Counted from the stretch's first letter, positions 1 to 11,935 are shown. The stretch is 64,000 nucleotides of DNA from an uncultured Candidatus Saccharibacteria bacterium (GCA_964430945.1 CAYSHH010000001.1:6473-70472); one strand, 5' to 3'. The notes: a model not told the origin generated them from the sequence alone. Translations and numbers: made by a program.

Positions 1-56
1 CTTCATCGGCTAAGTCTCCCAAGGCATCCACCGTATACTCTTAATGATGATTCTAA
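1..56 (-). rRNA. rrl: 23S rRNA, 5' end only (gene continues leftward out of window)
   Basis: Reverse complement of 1..56 reads ..TCATTAAGAGTATACGGTGGATGCCTTGGGAGACTTAGCCGATGAAG. This matches the universally conserved 23S 5' region (ACGGTGGATGCCTTGG...GCCGATGAAGG). Confidence 0.6.
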
Positions 57-194
57 GATAATCTTATAACTGCAAATACACTGAGTTTTTATTACCCAAA
101 TGATTTATTAATGTTCGTAAAAATTATGTGCAGACTTTAAAACAGGTGTAATAACACCAGTTTTAATAACACATTCATTAGTTGTCGTAAGGCT

Positions 195-222
195 ATATTA
201 ACAAATTTATTTTTTATGTCAA
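195..222 (-). promoter_or_regulatory. sigma70-like promoter (TTGACA-16-TAATAT) facing the 23S 5' end
   Basis: Minus-strand read ggtacTTGACAtaaaaaataaatttgtTAATATagcc. -35 at 217..222, -10 at 195..200, about 130 nt upstream of the mature 23S 5' end. Confidence 0.4.
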
Positions 223-266
223 GTACCTATAAAAATTATAGACAAAAAAATAAATAAATATACATT

Positions 267-1631
267 TTATACCCAACTAGGATGCATACTGTCATCTACA
301 TTATGAGCTTGTTGATCATCTTCATTTGATTCAGAAATTGTAGGAATTATTTGAATCTTCGGTTTATTTTTATCCATAGGAATATCGAGATTTATTCTTC
401 CGCTTTTCTTGAAAGTAAGATTGTTTTTCTTATATTGTTCATAAGATGTTTTGACTGCTGTAATTTTATAATTTCCAGGATTAGCAAGAAAATTGTATCT
501 ACCATTACTATCCGAGATCTGTGTTGAAACAAGTTTATTTTCTCTATTGAACAATCTTAGAATTACTCTATCGATAAATATATTTTCGTTTTTATCCTTT
601 GTTATACCGTAAGGTCGAGTTTTTCTTAATTTATAAAGTTCTAATATCCAGATTACAATATACAGACACGCAACAACCAAATTCAAAGTTGTTATATTCT
701 CATAAAGCGCCATGACAGCAAAAATTGTACCCAAAATTATGACTGGAATTCTAATTACATTAAAAAATTTAATAACTCCTGATAGTAAATTAATTCGACG
801 AGACAAAACTTCATGATCGGGATCTAAGGGTATCTTGTAAAGTAACTCTTGTTTTTGATTTACAACAAATGGAGTGCCATGATAGCCTTCAGTAGTAGAT
901 TTAGATGGAAAAGCATAATTAGATTTAATAACTTTTATATAATATTTCCCAGGACCAACAAATAACAAAAATCTACCTTCCTGGTCTGTAATTTGAGTAG
1001 AAAGAAGCTTATTGTATTCGTTTTCAAATATTTGTACTACTGCTCTTGATATTGGTGCATTTGCCTCTGCATCATAAACCATACCGTAACGCTCCTTCTT
1101 TTTACCAAAATCAAAAAGCGCCAAAAACCATGACCAGGCACTACCGAAAAGCGAGAGTATTGCTATACCACCAAAAAGTTGGGACAAAAGAAGTATTACT
1201 AAGGTAAGCGCTAAACCAACAGTCGCTAGTGGTATATTGAGTTCTTTAGCCAATTGACCCAAAGGTGTGTTGACACCCATCTTAATATCAAAGATAGTAC
1301 CCAAAATAGTAATATCTTCTCCAGTCGGTATCAAATTTTCAGCATCTATGATCGGCCCTAAGCTTATTGGTATTCCTCCGTCTGATTGATTGTTATTATC
1401 TCCTCCTCCGCCACTATTTGATACACTAGGCCAAAATACTATTTGACTCATGTCAGTAAGCATTCCGAATACTTGATAGTTCTCCGAACTACTACTTCCG
1501 CCACTATAATCAACTTGATCAGTAACGTTATATCTTTCCGAAGAAGCAGTATTGGCCATACAAAAAATAGGCAAAAACGTTGCCACTCCCAAAAGCACTA
1601 AAATATAAATTTGATTCACTCCTTTTTTCAT
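267..1631 (-). CDS. Polytopic membrane protein with N-terminal signal/TM, Gly/Ser-rich low-complexity segment and two carboxypeptidase-regulatory-like (CarboxypepD_reg) beta-sandwich repeats
   Basis: ORF track 454 aa. Hydrophobic N-terminus; SGGGGDNNNQSDGG tract; multiple TM helices; two repeats of type GRFLLFVGPGKYYIKV and NGRYNFLANPGNYKITAV. Only 13 nt downstream of the preceding gene. Confidence 0.55.
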   Translation of the reverse strand: MKKGVNQIYILVLLGVATFLPIFCMANTASSERYNVTDQVDYSGGSSSSENYQVFGMLTDMSQIVFWPSVSNSGGGGDNNNQSDGGIPISLGPIIDAENLIPTGEDITILGTIFDIKMGVNTPLGQLAKELNIPLATVGLALTLVILLLSQLFGGIAILSLFGSAWSWFLALFDFGKKKERYGMVYDAEANAPISRAVVQIFENEYNKLLSTQITDQEGRFLLFVGPGKYYIKVIKSNYAFPSKSTTEGYHGTPFVVNQKQELLYKIPLDPDHEVLSRRINLLSGVIKFFNVIRIPVIILGTIFAVMALYENITTLNLVVACLYIVIWILELYKLRKTRPYGITKDKNENIFIDRVILRLFNRENKLVSTQISDSNGRYNFLANPGNYKITAVKTSYEQYKKNNLTFKKSGRINLDIPMDKNKPKIQIIPTISESNEDDQQAHNVDDSMHPSWV

Positions 1632-1644
1632 ATCACAAAATAAC

Positions 1645-10097: not shown

Positions 10098-11596
10098 AAA
10101 GGAGGTGATCCATCCGCAGGTTCCCCTACGGATACCTTGTTACGACTTAGTGCTCCTTGCCGATCCTGCCGTAACCCCGCACTCTGATTCCAAAAATAAT
10201 TTAGAAACAAAGTGCGGAGCTTCGGGCATTACCGACTCGGCTCGCTTGACGGGCGGTGTGTACAAGGCTTGAGAACGTATTCACCGTGGTATGGCTGACC
10301 CACGATTACTAGCGATTCCAGCTTCATGGAGGCGAGTTTCAGCCTCCAATCCGAACTGCGACAACCTTTAGGGATTAGCTCCACCTCGCGGTATTGCGAC
10401 CCTTTGTAGTTGCCATTGTAGCACGTGTGTCGCCCAGGACGTAAGAGCCACGCTGATTTGACGTCATCCTCACCTTCCTCCCCGTTAACCGAGGCAGTCT
10501 CGCCAGAAAAATTCAACTGGCGATAAGGGTTTCGCTCGTTAGCCGACTTAACGGAACATCTCACGACACGAGCTGACGACAACCGTGCAGCACCTGTCAC
10601 CAATCCAGCCTAACTGACCCCTTTATTTCTAAAGGGTACGATTGGGATGTCAAGTCCTGGTAAGGTTCTTCGCTTATCGTCGAATTAAACCACATGCTCC
10701 ACCGCTTGTGCAAGCCCCCGTCAATTCCTTTGAGTTTTAGTCTTGCGACCGTACTTCCCAGGCGGCAAACTTAACGCGTTAGCTTTGCTGCAAGGAGGGT
10801 CGATACTCCCAACAACTAGTTTGCATCGTTTACAGCTAAGACTACACGGGTATCTAATCCGTTTCGCTACCTTAGCTTTCGTGCTTTAGTGTCAGTATCA
10901 GTCTAGTGTGCTGCCTTCGCCATTGGTGTTCTTCTCGATATCAACGGATTTCACTCCTACACCGAAAATTCCGCACACCTCTACTGAACTCAAGTTATAA
11001 AGTTTCCTCCGCAATTTTTGAGTTAAGCCCAAAAATTTAACAAAAGACTTTTACAACCACCTAGACACCCTTTACGCCCAATAATTCCGGATAACGCTAG
11101 TACCCTACGTATCACCGAGGCTTCTGGCACGTAGTTAGCCGGTACTTATTCGTCTGGTACTGTCATAATCCTCCCAGACAAAAGGAGTTTACGCCCCGAA
11201 AGGTTTCTTCCTCCACGCGGTGTCGCTGCGTCAGACTTTCGTCCATTGCGCAATATTCCCAACTGCTGCCTCCCGTAGGAGTAGGGACCGTATCTCAGTT
11301 CCCTCGTGGCTGATCATCCTCTCAGATCAGCTACCCGTCGTCGCCTTGGTAGGCAATTACCCCACCAACAAGCTGATAGGCCGCAGGCCCCTCTCATGGC
11401 AATAAATCTTTACTCTAAAAAACATGATAGCAATTTAGAGACTATGGAGAATTACCCCGGATTTCTCCGAGCTATGCTCCACCATGAGGCAGGTTCCTAC
11501 GTGTTACTCACTCGTCTGCCGCTATATCGCTCGACTTGCATGTGTTAGGCACACCGCCAGCGTTCATCCTGAGCCAGGATCAAACTCTTAAATAAA
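10098..11596 (-). rRNA. rrs: 16S rRNA (complete, about 1.5 kb)
   Basis: Plus strand shows reverse complements of universal 16S motifs: AAGGAGGTGATCCA (3' end/anti-SD) at about 10099..10112; ACGGGCGGTGTGT (1392 region); GTATTACCGCGGCTGCTGGCAC-like (519 region); CTGAGCCAGGATCAAACTCT (5' end) at 11569..11588. Confidence 0.95.
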
Positions 11597-11683
11597 TATA
11601 GTTCGCTCCAGCAAATGCTGGATCTGGCTACAAAAAGAAATTAACAAAGTGTTTATTATACTGTGATCTGTTAAAAGCACAGT

Positions 11684-11710
11684 ATTCTTACAACCGCAGA
11701 GTTACCGATA
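11684..11710 (-). other. 16S rRNA leader half of processing stem (pairs with 9997..10023)
   Basis: See trailer half. Complementary over 27 nt across about 1.7 kb. Confidence 0.6.
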
Positions 11711-11898
11711 AGGTTACTCTGCAAAATAATTTAATAAAGAACAAAGAGTAACAAAAAGTTGTCAGGAACAAGTTCTCGACAACTTTTCGCAACTCTTTCA
11801 GATTGTATATATTTGTTAAGCCATTGATAAATCTCCCTCACTTTTTTTATCAGCCGATACCGTTAAAAAATAATTTATGATTATCCACAAGCATCAAT

Positions 11899-11927
11899 AT
11901 GATAGCATGCTTAAAAATATTAGTCAA
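11899..11927 (-). promoter_or_regulatory. Candidate 16S rRNA promoter (TTGACT-17-TATCAT)
   Basis: Minus-strand read ccTTGACTaatatttttaagcatgcTATCATattg. -35 at 11922..11927, -10 at 11899..11904; about 300 nt upstream of the mature 16S 5' end and just downstream of the pepA stop. Confidence 0.4.
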
Positions 11928-11935
11928 GGCCGGTT

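Follow-up and report, generated by a model that had tools for sequence, protein, structure and literature searches.

The ribosomal RNA (rRNA) locus studied here lies in a 64,000-nucleotide (nt) stretch of DNA, given as one strand and referred to below as the window (uncultured Candidatus Saccharibacteria bacterium, GCA_964430945.1 CAYSHH010000001.1:6473-70472). In this locus the 16S gene, the transfer RNA genes tRNA-Ile and tRNA-Ala and the 23S gene follow one another in the order of a canonical rrn operon, and nine protein-coding open reading frames (ORFs) are situated between 16S and 23S. We consider it likely that this is the single rRNA locus of a bacterium of the Candidate Phyla Radiation (CPR), stretched and transcriptionally split, in which the ancestral order 16S, Ile, Ala, 23S (and 5S) has been kept.

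The gene map was observed directly. An earlier note, made from the sequence of the window, had described 16S, the tRNA pair and 23S as dispersed with nine protein genes between them, and the Rfam and ARAGORN searches and the ORF map agree with this description (Table 1). The two tRNA genes, which lie 16 nt apart, scored 75.4 and 65.1 bits with the Rfam tRNA model. The distance from the 3' end of 16S (position 10098) to the 5' end of 23S (position 54) is 10,043 nt, and all nine ORFs in this gap are on the minus strand. Two of them, an ORF for a membrane protein of 120 amino acids (aa), ORF120, and a gene for a Clp-like ATPase (clp), separate 16S from tRNA-Ile, and the stretch from tRNA-Ala to 23S contains seven, with lengths of 139, 198, 296, 162, 84, 670 and 454 aa. 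Thus, the canonical order is found on one strand in the window, whose 5S gene lies beyond the sequence, whereas the canonical short spacer (mean ~0.4 kb, at most 1.5 kb, tRNAs only) is replaced by 10,043 nt with nine ORFs.

Only the beginning of the 23S gene falls within the window, and its match to the large-subunit (LSU) rRNA model (positions 1-54, 19.3 bits, E 0.017) is under the Rfam gathering threshold, being reported only with an E-value threshold. A Logan contig from run SRR13007709 (L081), retrieved by an exact-protein look-up of the ORF adjoining 23S, was 100% identical to window 1..3940 and reached 295 nt further to the left. This contig matched LSU model positions 1-262 (192.5 bits, E 2.5e-60) and contained 349 nt of clear 23S. 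Since the identical contig prolongs the LSU match, the left edge of the window is a genuine 23S 5' end, and the reading of positions 1..56 as the start of 23S was borne out as far as the sequence goes. Full 23S and 5S genes were also present at the homologous position in relatives, with 5S following 23S in L082, L097 and L098.

Related loci, which are given here as numbers with the prefix L, were gathered through a genome scan, a metagenome scan and the contexts of Clp homologues, and were annotated with Rfam, ARAGORN and tblastn. The synteny comparison that the earlier note had suggested revealed that the same layout recurs in independent metagenomic genomes, at least five to seven in number. 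The succession of 16S, an ORF of about 120 aa and clp was found in the window, L082 (identical to L003), L097, L098, L099 (the same as L001 and L100), L106 and L107. The clp gene was followed by tRNA-Ile (and tRNA-Ala) in the window, L002, L082, L097, L098, L099, L101 and L106, and tRNA-Ala was followed, further on, by 23S in the window, L002, L082, L097 and L098. The 16S identity to the window was 91% (partial) for L097, 87.6% for L099, 84.4% for L098 and 80.3% for L082. Because the layout recurs down to 80% 16S identity, the arrangement is older than a divergence of roughly family-to-order depth. Moreover, opposite-strand genes occur within the locus in L097 (334 aa) and L099 (273, 63 and 346 aa).

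Such a layout could in principle be an artefact of assembly or binning, that is, a chimeric contig joined at a conserved rRNA or tRNA. Metagenome assemblies are well known to break or to be misjoined at rRNA genes, and for many of the relatives the contig is only ~3.2 kb long, with its ends at 16S and tRNA-Ile. However, the independent assembly L081 reproduces ORF84, ORF670, ORF454 and the 23S junction at 100% identity, and the same junctions recur in other genomes (five to seven), which come from different samples and were built with different assemblers. This leaves an artefact scarcely credible.

The separate sigma70-like promoter candidates that had been proposed for 16S and 23S are both present. 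TTGACA-17 candidates occupy the equivalent position before 16S in L082, L098 and L099, and TTGACA-17-TA(A/T)(A/G)AT sites precede 23S in L002, L082, L097 and L098, so that, counting the window, a site of this kind stands before 23S in each of the five genomes that include the junction. The pattern TTGACW-N16-18-TANNAT had three matches in 64 kb, which is at chance level (2.6 expected), and two of the three are the 16S and 23S promoters, correctly oriented in the 339-nt and 212-nt spacers before these genes. Unlike the number of matches, the placement of both sites in short upstream spacers is not chance-level. Within the locus, a TGnTAtaAT-type -10 element lies before the ORF120 homologue in L082, L097, L098 and L106, and TTGAnn-17-TAttAT sites lie upstream of tRNA-Ile in L002, L097, L098, L099 and L106; no clear promoter was seen before tRNA-Ile in L082 or L101.

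Both rRNA leaders contain a hairpin with a T-run and a boxA-like motif, the likeness being judged against what we take to be the boxA consensus. The 16S leader and trailer pair in a duplex of -47.5 kcal/mol (shuffled sequences, -27.3 +/- 5.9), the segment GCGGTTGTAAGAAT of its 5' half is invariant in four genomes, and ATTCTT[A/G]CAACCGC follows 16S in L082, L097, L098, L099/L001, L106 and L107. This stem had been offered as a sign that 16S is unlinked. A leader-trailer stem around 16S is standard in every rrn operon, linked ones included, so the stem is real but uninformative on unlinking. 16S and 23S have separate processing stems; in L097 the leader half of the 23S stem pairs with the 23S trailer (-50.9 kcal/mol).

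After 16S, a hairpin with a T-run was found at the same place, with differing sequences, in L082 (z-score (z) -5.9), L097 (-5.3), L098 (-3.5) and L106, and it was weak in L099 (z -1.2). The terminator scan missed this element in the window (too few G-C pairs) as well as the terminator of ORF139 (15-nt loop), and both were found by reading and folding. The hairpin after tRNA-Ala is present in all relatives and is followed by T-runs in L082, L097 and L099. The conservation of these signals is a direct observation, whereas their action in vivo, the extent of read-through and the separate transcription of the units are what we infer from it. The statement that the protein genes each have their own terminator or promoter was an overstatement: ORF296, ORF162 and ORF84 are tightly packed with gaps of 32 and 12 nt, ORF670 and ORF454 are 13 nt apart, and ORF120 and clp overlap by ATGA, which would couple their translation. 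ORF296-ORF162-ORF84 and ORF670-ORF454 look like small operons.

Table 1. Features of the window and of related loci. All window features are listed in the direction of transcription; percentages after locus numbers refer to the Clp-like protein.
Sequence	Feature	Position	Strand	Remarks
Window	tig	16707..17888	-	
Window	clpP	13441..14118	-	
Window	pepA	11936..13423	-	
Window	16S promoter candidate, TTGACT-17-TATCAT	11899..11927	-	directly after pepA stop
Window	16S leader hairpin with T-run	11751..11790	-	-17.4 kcal/mol, z -4.8
Window	boxA-like motif TACTCTTTGTTCTTTATTAAA in 16S leader	11730..11750	-	conserved in L098 and L099, weaker in L082
Window	16S processing stem, 5' half (CGGTAACTCTGCGGTTGTAAGAAT)	11684..11707	-	pairs with 10023..10000
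Window	16S rRNA gene	10098..11595	-	Rfam SSU_rRNA_bacteria RF00177, 1464.5 bits, model 1-1533, full length, without insertions
Window	16S processing stem, 3' half (ATTCTTACAACCGCAAAGTTACTG)	10000..10023	-	pairs with 11707..11684
Window	Terminator-like element after 16S (A-run, hairpin, T-run)	9964..9995	-	-11 kcal/mol, z -5.0
Window	ORF120-clp promoter candidate, CTGATA-17-TATAAT	9929..9957	-	strong Shine-Dalgarno sequence after it
Window	ORF120, small membrane protein	9545..9907	-	C-terminal hydrophobic region
Window	clp, Clp/Hsp100-type double AAA+ ATPase	7035..9548	-	837 aa (NCBI call); 855 aa from first ATG
Window	tRNA promoter candidate, TTGAAA-17-TATTAT, TG-extended	7004..7032	-	starts 2 nt past clp stop
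Window	tRNA-Ile(GAU)	6906..6981	-	ARAGORN; Rfam tRNA at 6909..6981
Window	tRNA-Ala(UGC)	6814..6889	-	ARAGORN; Rfam tRNA at 6817..6889
Window	18-bp hairpin after tRNA-Ala, terminator-like or processing element	6773..6816	-	-28 kcal/mol, z -7.3; begins inside tRNA-Ala 3' end
Window	ORF139	6208..6627	-	found only in window locus
Window	Terminator-like hairpin after ORF139	6147..6188	-	folding
Window	ORF198, NT5C/HAD-like 5'-nucleotidase	5503..6099	-	Pfam; only in window locus
Window	Terminator-like hairpin after ORF198	5466..5497	-	folding
Window	ORF296, DUF2797 protein	4534..5424	-	Pfam; only in window locus
Window	ORF162, small membrane protein	4013..4501	-	hydrophobic segments
Window	ORF84, small membrane protein	3746..4000	-	hydrophobic segments
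Window	Promoter candidate before ORF670-ORF454	3706..3735	-	consensus match
Window	ORF670, secreted fibre-like protein	1645..3657	-	weak Bdello_MAT_N and K1-lyase_C matches
Window	ORF454, membrane/surface protein, last gene before 23S	267..1631	-	Pfam: two CarboxypepD_reg-type domains
Window	23S promoter candidate, TTGACA-16-TAATAT, TG-extended	195..222	-	AT-rich stretch precedes
Window	23S leader hairpin with T-run	137..166	-	z -4.7
Window	boxA-like motif GAACATTAATAAATCA in 23S leader	101..116	-	motif common to L097 and L098
Window	23S processing stem, 5' half	57..97	-	near-identical in L097
Window	23S rRNA gene, 5' end	1..54	-	runs past left window edge
L097 (60%)	Locus order			16S, ORF121, Clp, Ile, GIY-YIG, Ala, ORF162, ORF85, fibre-like 468, 334 aa on opposite strand, ORF451, 23S, 5S
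L098 (54%)	Locus order			clpP, pepA, two ORFs, 16S, ORF121, Clp, Ile, Ala, seven assorted genes (one opposite-strand), ORF162, ORF90, 23S, 5S
L099 (=L100, L001; 50%)	Locus order			tig, ORF, clpP, pepA, 16S, ORF119, Clp, PlsY, Ile, Ala, ORF164, ORF89, fibre-like, three opposite-strand genes, second fibre-like, ORF450, contig end
L082 (=L003, 100% identical; 44%)	Locus order			16S, ORF129, Clp, Ile, GIY-YIG, Ala, ORF155, ORF73, ORF444, 23S, 5S
L002 (45%)	Locus order			ORF125, Clp, Ile, Ala, GIY-YIG, restriction-modification-like island, ORF168, ORF89, ORF458, 23S
L106 (64%)	Locus order			short contig: 16S 3' end, ORF121, Clp, ends in tRNA-Ile
L107 (53%)	Locus order			short contig: 16S 3' end, ORF121, Clp
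L082	GIY-YIG ORFs/partial tRNA copies	8396..9013		= L003 3995..4612
L097	GIY-YIG ORFs/partial tRNA copies	4266..4514		
L101	GIY-YIG ORFs/partial tRNA copies	6663..6917		
L002	GIY-YIG ORFs/partial tRNA copies	3640..3885		
L098	GIY-YIG ORFs/partial tRNA copies	~12540..12586		
L106	GIY-YIG ORFs/partial tRNA copies	~3180..3200		

On this basis the locus would be expressed as a series of units. The first would comprise the 16S promoter, the leader hairpin with the boxA-like motif, 16S within its processing stem and the terminator, and the second ORF120 and clp from their own promoter. A third unit would have a promoter for tRNA-Ile and tRNA-Ala and a closing hairpin, and several small protein-gene transcripts would come after it. 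The last would consist of the 23S promoter, the leader hairpin with its boxA-like motif, and 23S-5S within their own processing stem. The balance between 16S and 23S would then be set in trans, by similar near-consensus promoters and antitermination-like leaders. As both promoters are similar and near-consensus and both leaders are antitermination-like, co-transcription would be dispensable.

Several observations weigh against such a split. The nine genes of the window are co-oriented with gaps of at most 212 nt, so that the locus could be scored as 'operonic with protein-coding genes' if the conservative rule that Lui et al. 2021 used (PMC8172020) is applied. Consensus promoter matches are frequent, 73 having been found by the scan against 59 expected in a genome of 33% GC. 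The hairpin after tRNA-Ala in the window has no clean T-run, and a hairpin with a T-run also occurs downstream of the 16S and 23S promoters, meaning that not all such elements are terminators. It is also possible that the boxA-like motifs, if they recruit an antitermination complex, could allow read-through past the terminator after 16S. Finally, the layout is not universal in the clade: in L101 (Clp 52%) a ROK gene and ORF151 are found upstream (1..2380) instead of 16S, and in L105, whose Clp-like protein is the closest (68%), the 320 nt (1..320) that precede ORF120 are GC-rich and structured-looking and are not 16S.

Some of these points would fit a single operon of ~15 kb transcribed from the 16S promoter, from which RNase III and RNase P would excise the rRNAs and tRNAs, leaving the mRNAs as by-products coupled to rRNA synthesis. 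The co-orientation with short gaps, the termination resistance that boxA-like motifs could confer on RNA polymerase and the missing T-run after tRNA-Ala are compatible with it, as is the fact that the order is kept to ~80% 16S identity though the flanks of L082 differ. However, the near-consensus promoters immediately ahead of 23S and of the tRNAs are shared with relatives, as is the T-run hairpin behind 16S, and strong terminator-like hairpins follow ORF139 and ORF198. The co-orientation emphasised in the earlier note does exist, all genes of the locus being on the minus strand, but it is uninformative and expected by chance, since 45 of the 50 long ORFs in the window (90%) share one strand. 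Because internal promoters and terminators are conserved and L097 and L099 have opposite-strand genes inside the same layout, a single transcript is disfavoured as the main mode of expression, and we regard the operon as unlikely. Partial read-through in the window locus is nevertheless plausible. The idea of unlinked transcription with a remnant of the ancestral order was largely right: the order is kept, and separate units are the interpretation that best fits the sequence and six or seven related genomes.

The genes between the rRNAs differ in age. Five of the nine (ORF120, clp, ORF162, ORF84 and ORF454) keep their order across the clade according to BLASTP and tblastn, and all of the conserved resident genes encode predicted membrane or secreted proteins. 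One long-resident module, between 16S and tRNA-Ile, would be formed by the translationally coupled membrane ORF and the Clp-like AAA+ protein, which is probably membrane-anchored; a second, between tRNA-Ala and 23S, would consist of ORF162, ORF84, the fibre-like ORF670 and ORF454. Homologues of ORF162 and ORF84 (29-74% identity) occur in the same order in L002, L082, L097, L098, L099 and L101. Those of ORF454 (33-46% identity) are in the same position in L002, L082, L097 and L099 and absent in L098. The metagenome scan also returned ORF454 homologues of lower similarity (L083-L096, ~30% identity), none of which adjoins rRNA, so that ORF454 is not intrinsically rRNA-linked. In ORF670 the N-terminal ~175 aa are conserved in L097 (5443..6849) and twice in L099, and the C-termini differ. 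This combination of a shared N-terminus and a variable C-terminus is a pattern typical of diversifying adhesins or receptor-binding proteins. The fibre-like gene is duplicated in L099 (14913..16370 and 18456..19874).

For ORF139, ORF198 and ORF296, BLASTP and tblastn detected no homologue in any related locus. They form a genome-specific block of 2.1 kb (4534..6627) directly after tRNA-Ala, and the site directly after tRNA-Ala differs in every relative as well. Judging from these comparisons, it is a site that takes up lineage-specific insertions. In most relatives GIY-YIG ORFs (75-84 aa) and partial copies of the tRNA-Ile or tRNA-Ala ends lie beside the spacer tRNAs, which suggests repeated endonuclease-associated insertion there; the window has neither. 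In L101, ORF157 and ORF88 stand between tRNA-Ile and tRNA-Ala. In L002 (4115..8860), the island that directly follows tRNA-Ala encodes two proteins resembling DNA methyltransferases, of 820 and 280 aa, as well as a RadC-like fragment and a protein of 343 aa; from reading these sequences it appears restriction-modification-like.

This variability raises the question of whether the spacer genes came with a mobile element or a prophage, now a remnant, that recently entered a canonical operon, with the tRNA genes having served as integration sites. In favour of this are the differing contents after tRNA-Ala (the island in L002, GIY-YIG ORFs or partial tRNAs in L082, L097, L101, L098 and L106, and the three ORFs peculiar to the window), the fibre-like character of ORF670 and a match of the NT5C-like protein to a PHROG family, the only PHROGs match among the intervening genes. 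However, neither an integrase or recombinase nor att-like direct repeats of a tRNA 3' end were found in the 16S-23S locus, PADLOC returned generic AAA+ matches only and no defence system for the intervening genes, and the GC content of the locus is similar to that of the rest of the window. A mobile element would account at most for the 2.1-kb block, and its whole-locus form is contradicted by the five genes that keep their order down to 80% 16S identity and are old residents. We therefore find this explanation highly improbable. As five genes are conserved clade-wide and the block after tRNA-Ala is variable, the earlier wording that the genes were inserted into the spacers would translate into two ancient events followed by continuing local turnover beside the tRNAs; it applies as such to the genome-specific ORF139, ORF198 and ORF296, not to the five long-standing residents.

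The pair upstream of the tRNAs has a history of its own. ORF120 had no Pfam or NCBIfam match. Every relative has a homologue (40-53% identity) immediately ahead of its Clp gene, and so have the outgroups L102-L104 (Clp 36-46%), in which the pair is kept with no rRNA or tRNA nearby. The combination of a small ORF and a Clp-like gene is widely conserved in Patescibacteria, even far from rRNA. The ATPase has the Pfam domains AAA, AAA_lid_9, AAA_2 and ClpB_D2-small and two N-terminal hydrophobic helices, which we read as a membrane anchor. An identity as ClpB/Hsp104 disaggregase was rejected: the TIGR03346 score of 529 is below the cut-off of 1232, the alignment to ClpB structures skips chain residues 400-507, which correspond to the M-domain, and the Walker B motif of D1 is KE instead of DE (NN in L002 and L003). 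A ClpP partner of the ClpA/ClpC type was rejected as well, with a TIGR02639 score of 496 (cut-off 993), no Clp_N (PF02861) among the precomputed Pfam domains of the window protein, and no [ILV]G[FL] docking tripeptide between TSNAG and FRPEF, where the ClpP-docking loop of D2 presumably lies by comparison with ClpA and ClpC. By these sequence features the protein is best described as an atypical Hsp100.

Directly upstream of 16S the window has tig, ORF455, clpP and pepA, all on the minus strand, as is likewise the case in L098 and L099. In many bacteria clpX follows tig-clpP; the AAA+ gene thus lies roughly at the usual place of clpX, with the 16S gene wedged between. The 23S genes of the clade carry insertions: that of L082 (11623..15628) is 4006 nt long, that of L097 (9580..13290) has an interruption of ~700 nt near its 3' end containing a 101-aa ORF, and that of the window organism, as seen in L081 (3887..4235, to the left of window position 1), is expanded by 95 nt around model position 160. 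In addition, the 23S leaders of L082 (11320..11460) and L002 (11330..11440) include an ORF of 13 codons (MQKKSQLGEEVVA and MSKVQQSRKGEVA) that is preceded by a Shine-Dalgarno sequence, and a hairpin with a T-run comes after it. This arrangement resembles a leader-peptide attenuator or a tiny gene, and the shorter 23S leader of the window has no equivalent.

The window has a GC content of 33% and a strongly negative GC skew. The plus-strand long ORFs (5/50) are confined to 21694..25599 and 34695..35654, and the skew climbs towards zero at 22-24 kb and 34-36 kb, matching these strand switches. The closest genome-database relatives of the Clp-like protein (44-45% identity) come from metagenome-assembled genomes labelled Candidatus Saccharibacteria or plain 'bacterium', and the next ones from other Patescibacteria; for PyrG, named relatives with 61-65% identity are scattered over several classes of Patescibacteria. 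What we take to be the TM7/Saccharibacteria probe signatures had no match in the window 16S. Since the named Clp and PyrG homologues are from Patescibacteria (CPR), the assignment of the organism to this phylum is secure.

With E. coli rrnA, rrnD and rrnH the window locus shares the gene order, the spacer tRNAs, separate RNase III-type stems for the two large rRNAs and motifs resembling boxA, one in the 16S leader and one ahead of 23S, but it differs from a canonical rrn operon in its length, its nine protein genes and its predicted internal promoters and terminators. The locus of Borrelia burgdorferi runs rrs, tRNA-Ala, an ORF, tRNA-Ile and tandem rrl-rrf copies with a spacer of ~3 kb, and there is evidence that 16S and 23S-5S are transcribed independently. 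It is similarly stretched, with 16S before 23S and Ile and Ala tRNAs plus a protein gene in the spacer; however, that spacer is a good deal shorter, with one of the tRNAs inverted, 23S-5S present in duplicate and intervening genes that are unrelated to those of the window. In the reduced-genome symbionts Buchnera, Rickettsia and Wolbachia, distances of tens to hundreds of kb separate 16S from 23S-5S, and no spacer tRNAs have stayed between the two. In the window, by contrast, 10 kb contain all of these genes in their ancestral order, the Ile and Ala tRNAs being retained in the middle. As would hold for the window organism, these symbionts have a single rRNA copy, a small AT-rich genome and an own promoter and terminator for 16S and for 23S-5S (PMC8172020, refs 60-61).

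The nearest counterparts are the unlinked loci of CPR bacteria. Brewer et al. 2020 defined unlinked rRNA genes by a 16S-23S gap >1500 bp, which the gap in the window exceeds, and listed Patescibacteria among the clades in which they are common (10.1101/705046). Lui et al. 2021 reported them in 27/34 (~80%) of circularised CPR genomes, with two Saccharimonadia genomes being operonic (PMC8172020), whereas two relatives of the window locus carry the label Ca. Saccharibacteria. In their category C the spacer has tRNAs and protein genes that are all on the same strand, and operonic status needs deeper analysis; in category D the genes are >2000 bp apart with no same-strand gene chain connecting them (PMC8172020). 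The window formally falls into category C, an assignment of layout only that does not by itself show co-transcription, and its nine same-strand ORFs place it outside category D, the opposite-strand feature of which is found in L097 and L099. The likeness also extends to the phylum, to a gap far >1.5-2 kb and to a trait that is clade-specific and phylogenetically conserved, as here. The rarity of protein genes in rrn spacers, put forward in the earlier note, is true of bacteria generally and not of Patescibacteria, in which unlinked rRNA genes are reported to be common (10.1101/705046; PMC8172020). Thus, a split rRNA locus in Patescibacteria is already established and the general picture is unchanged. 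Both surveys classify by distance and strand only, whereas here a specific conserved gene set is documented together with promoters, leaders and terminators. The clade-wide gene content and the comparative evidence for the signals are what is added here, and full-text literature searches returned no paper describing this arrangement.

Could selection rather than inertia keep the protein genes in the rrn locus? The AAA+ protein and its partner and the surface genes might be expressed in part by regulated read-through from rRNA promoters, or the AAA+ protein might act in ribosome or rRNA maturation. Hints of constraint are the internal order, which holds to 80% 16S identity even where a flank is different, as in L082 at least, and the hairpins with T-runs past the promoters of both leaders, these hairpins being possible attenuators. 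We regard this as a rather improbable proposal; if true, it would tie envelope and proteostasis functions to ribosome synthesis in minimal episymbiotic cells.

There are practical consequences as well. Primer pairs spanning 16S, the internal transcribed spacer and 23S, and long-amplicon 'rrn operon' profiling, will miss this lineage, and short-read assemblies break on both flanks of clp, giving the characteristic contigs of ~3.2 kb. With at least seven genomes, the clade is suited to deciding the operonic status that the CPR surveys left open. The locus would represent a sequence-level example of an rRNA operon coming apart, in which the order and the tRNAs stay while the pieces gain or keep a promoter, an antitermination-like leader and a terminator, and in which conserved membrane-protein genes would have taken up residence in the spacers, where variable genes also land.

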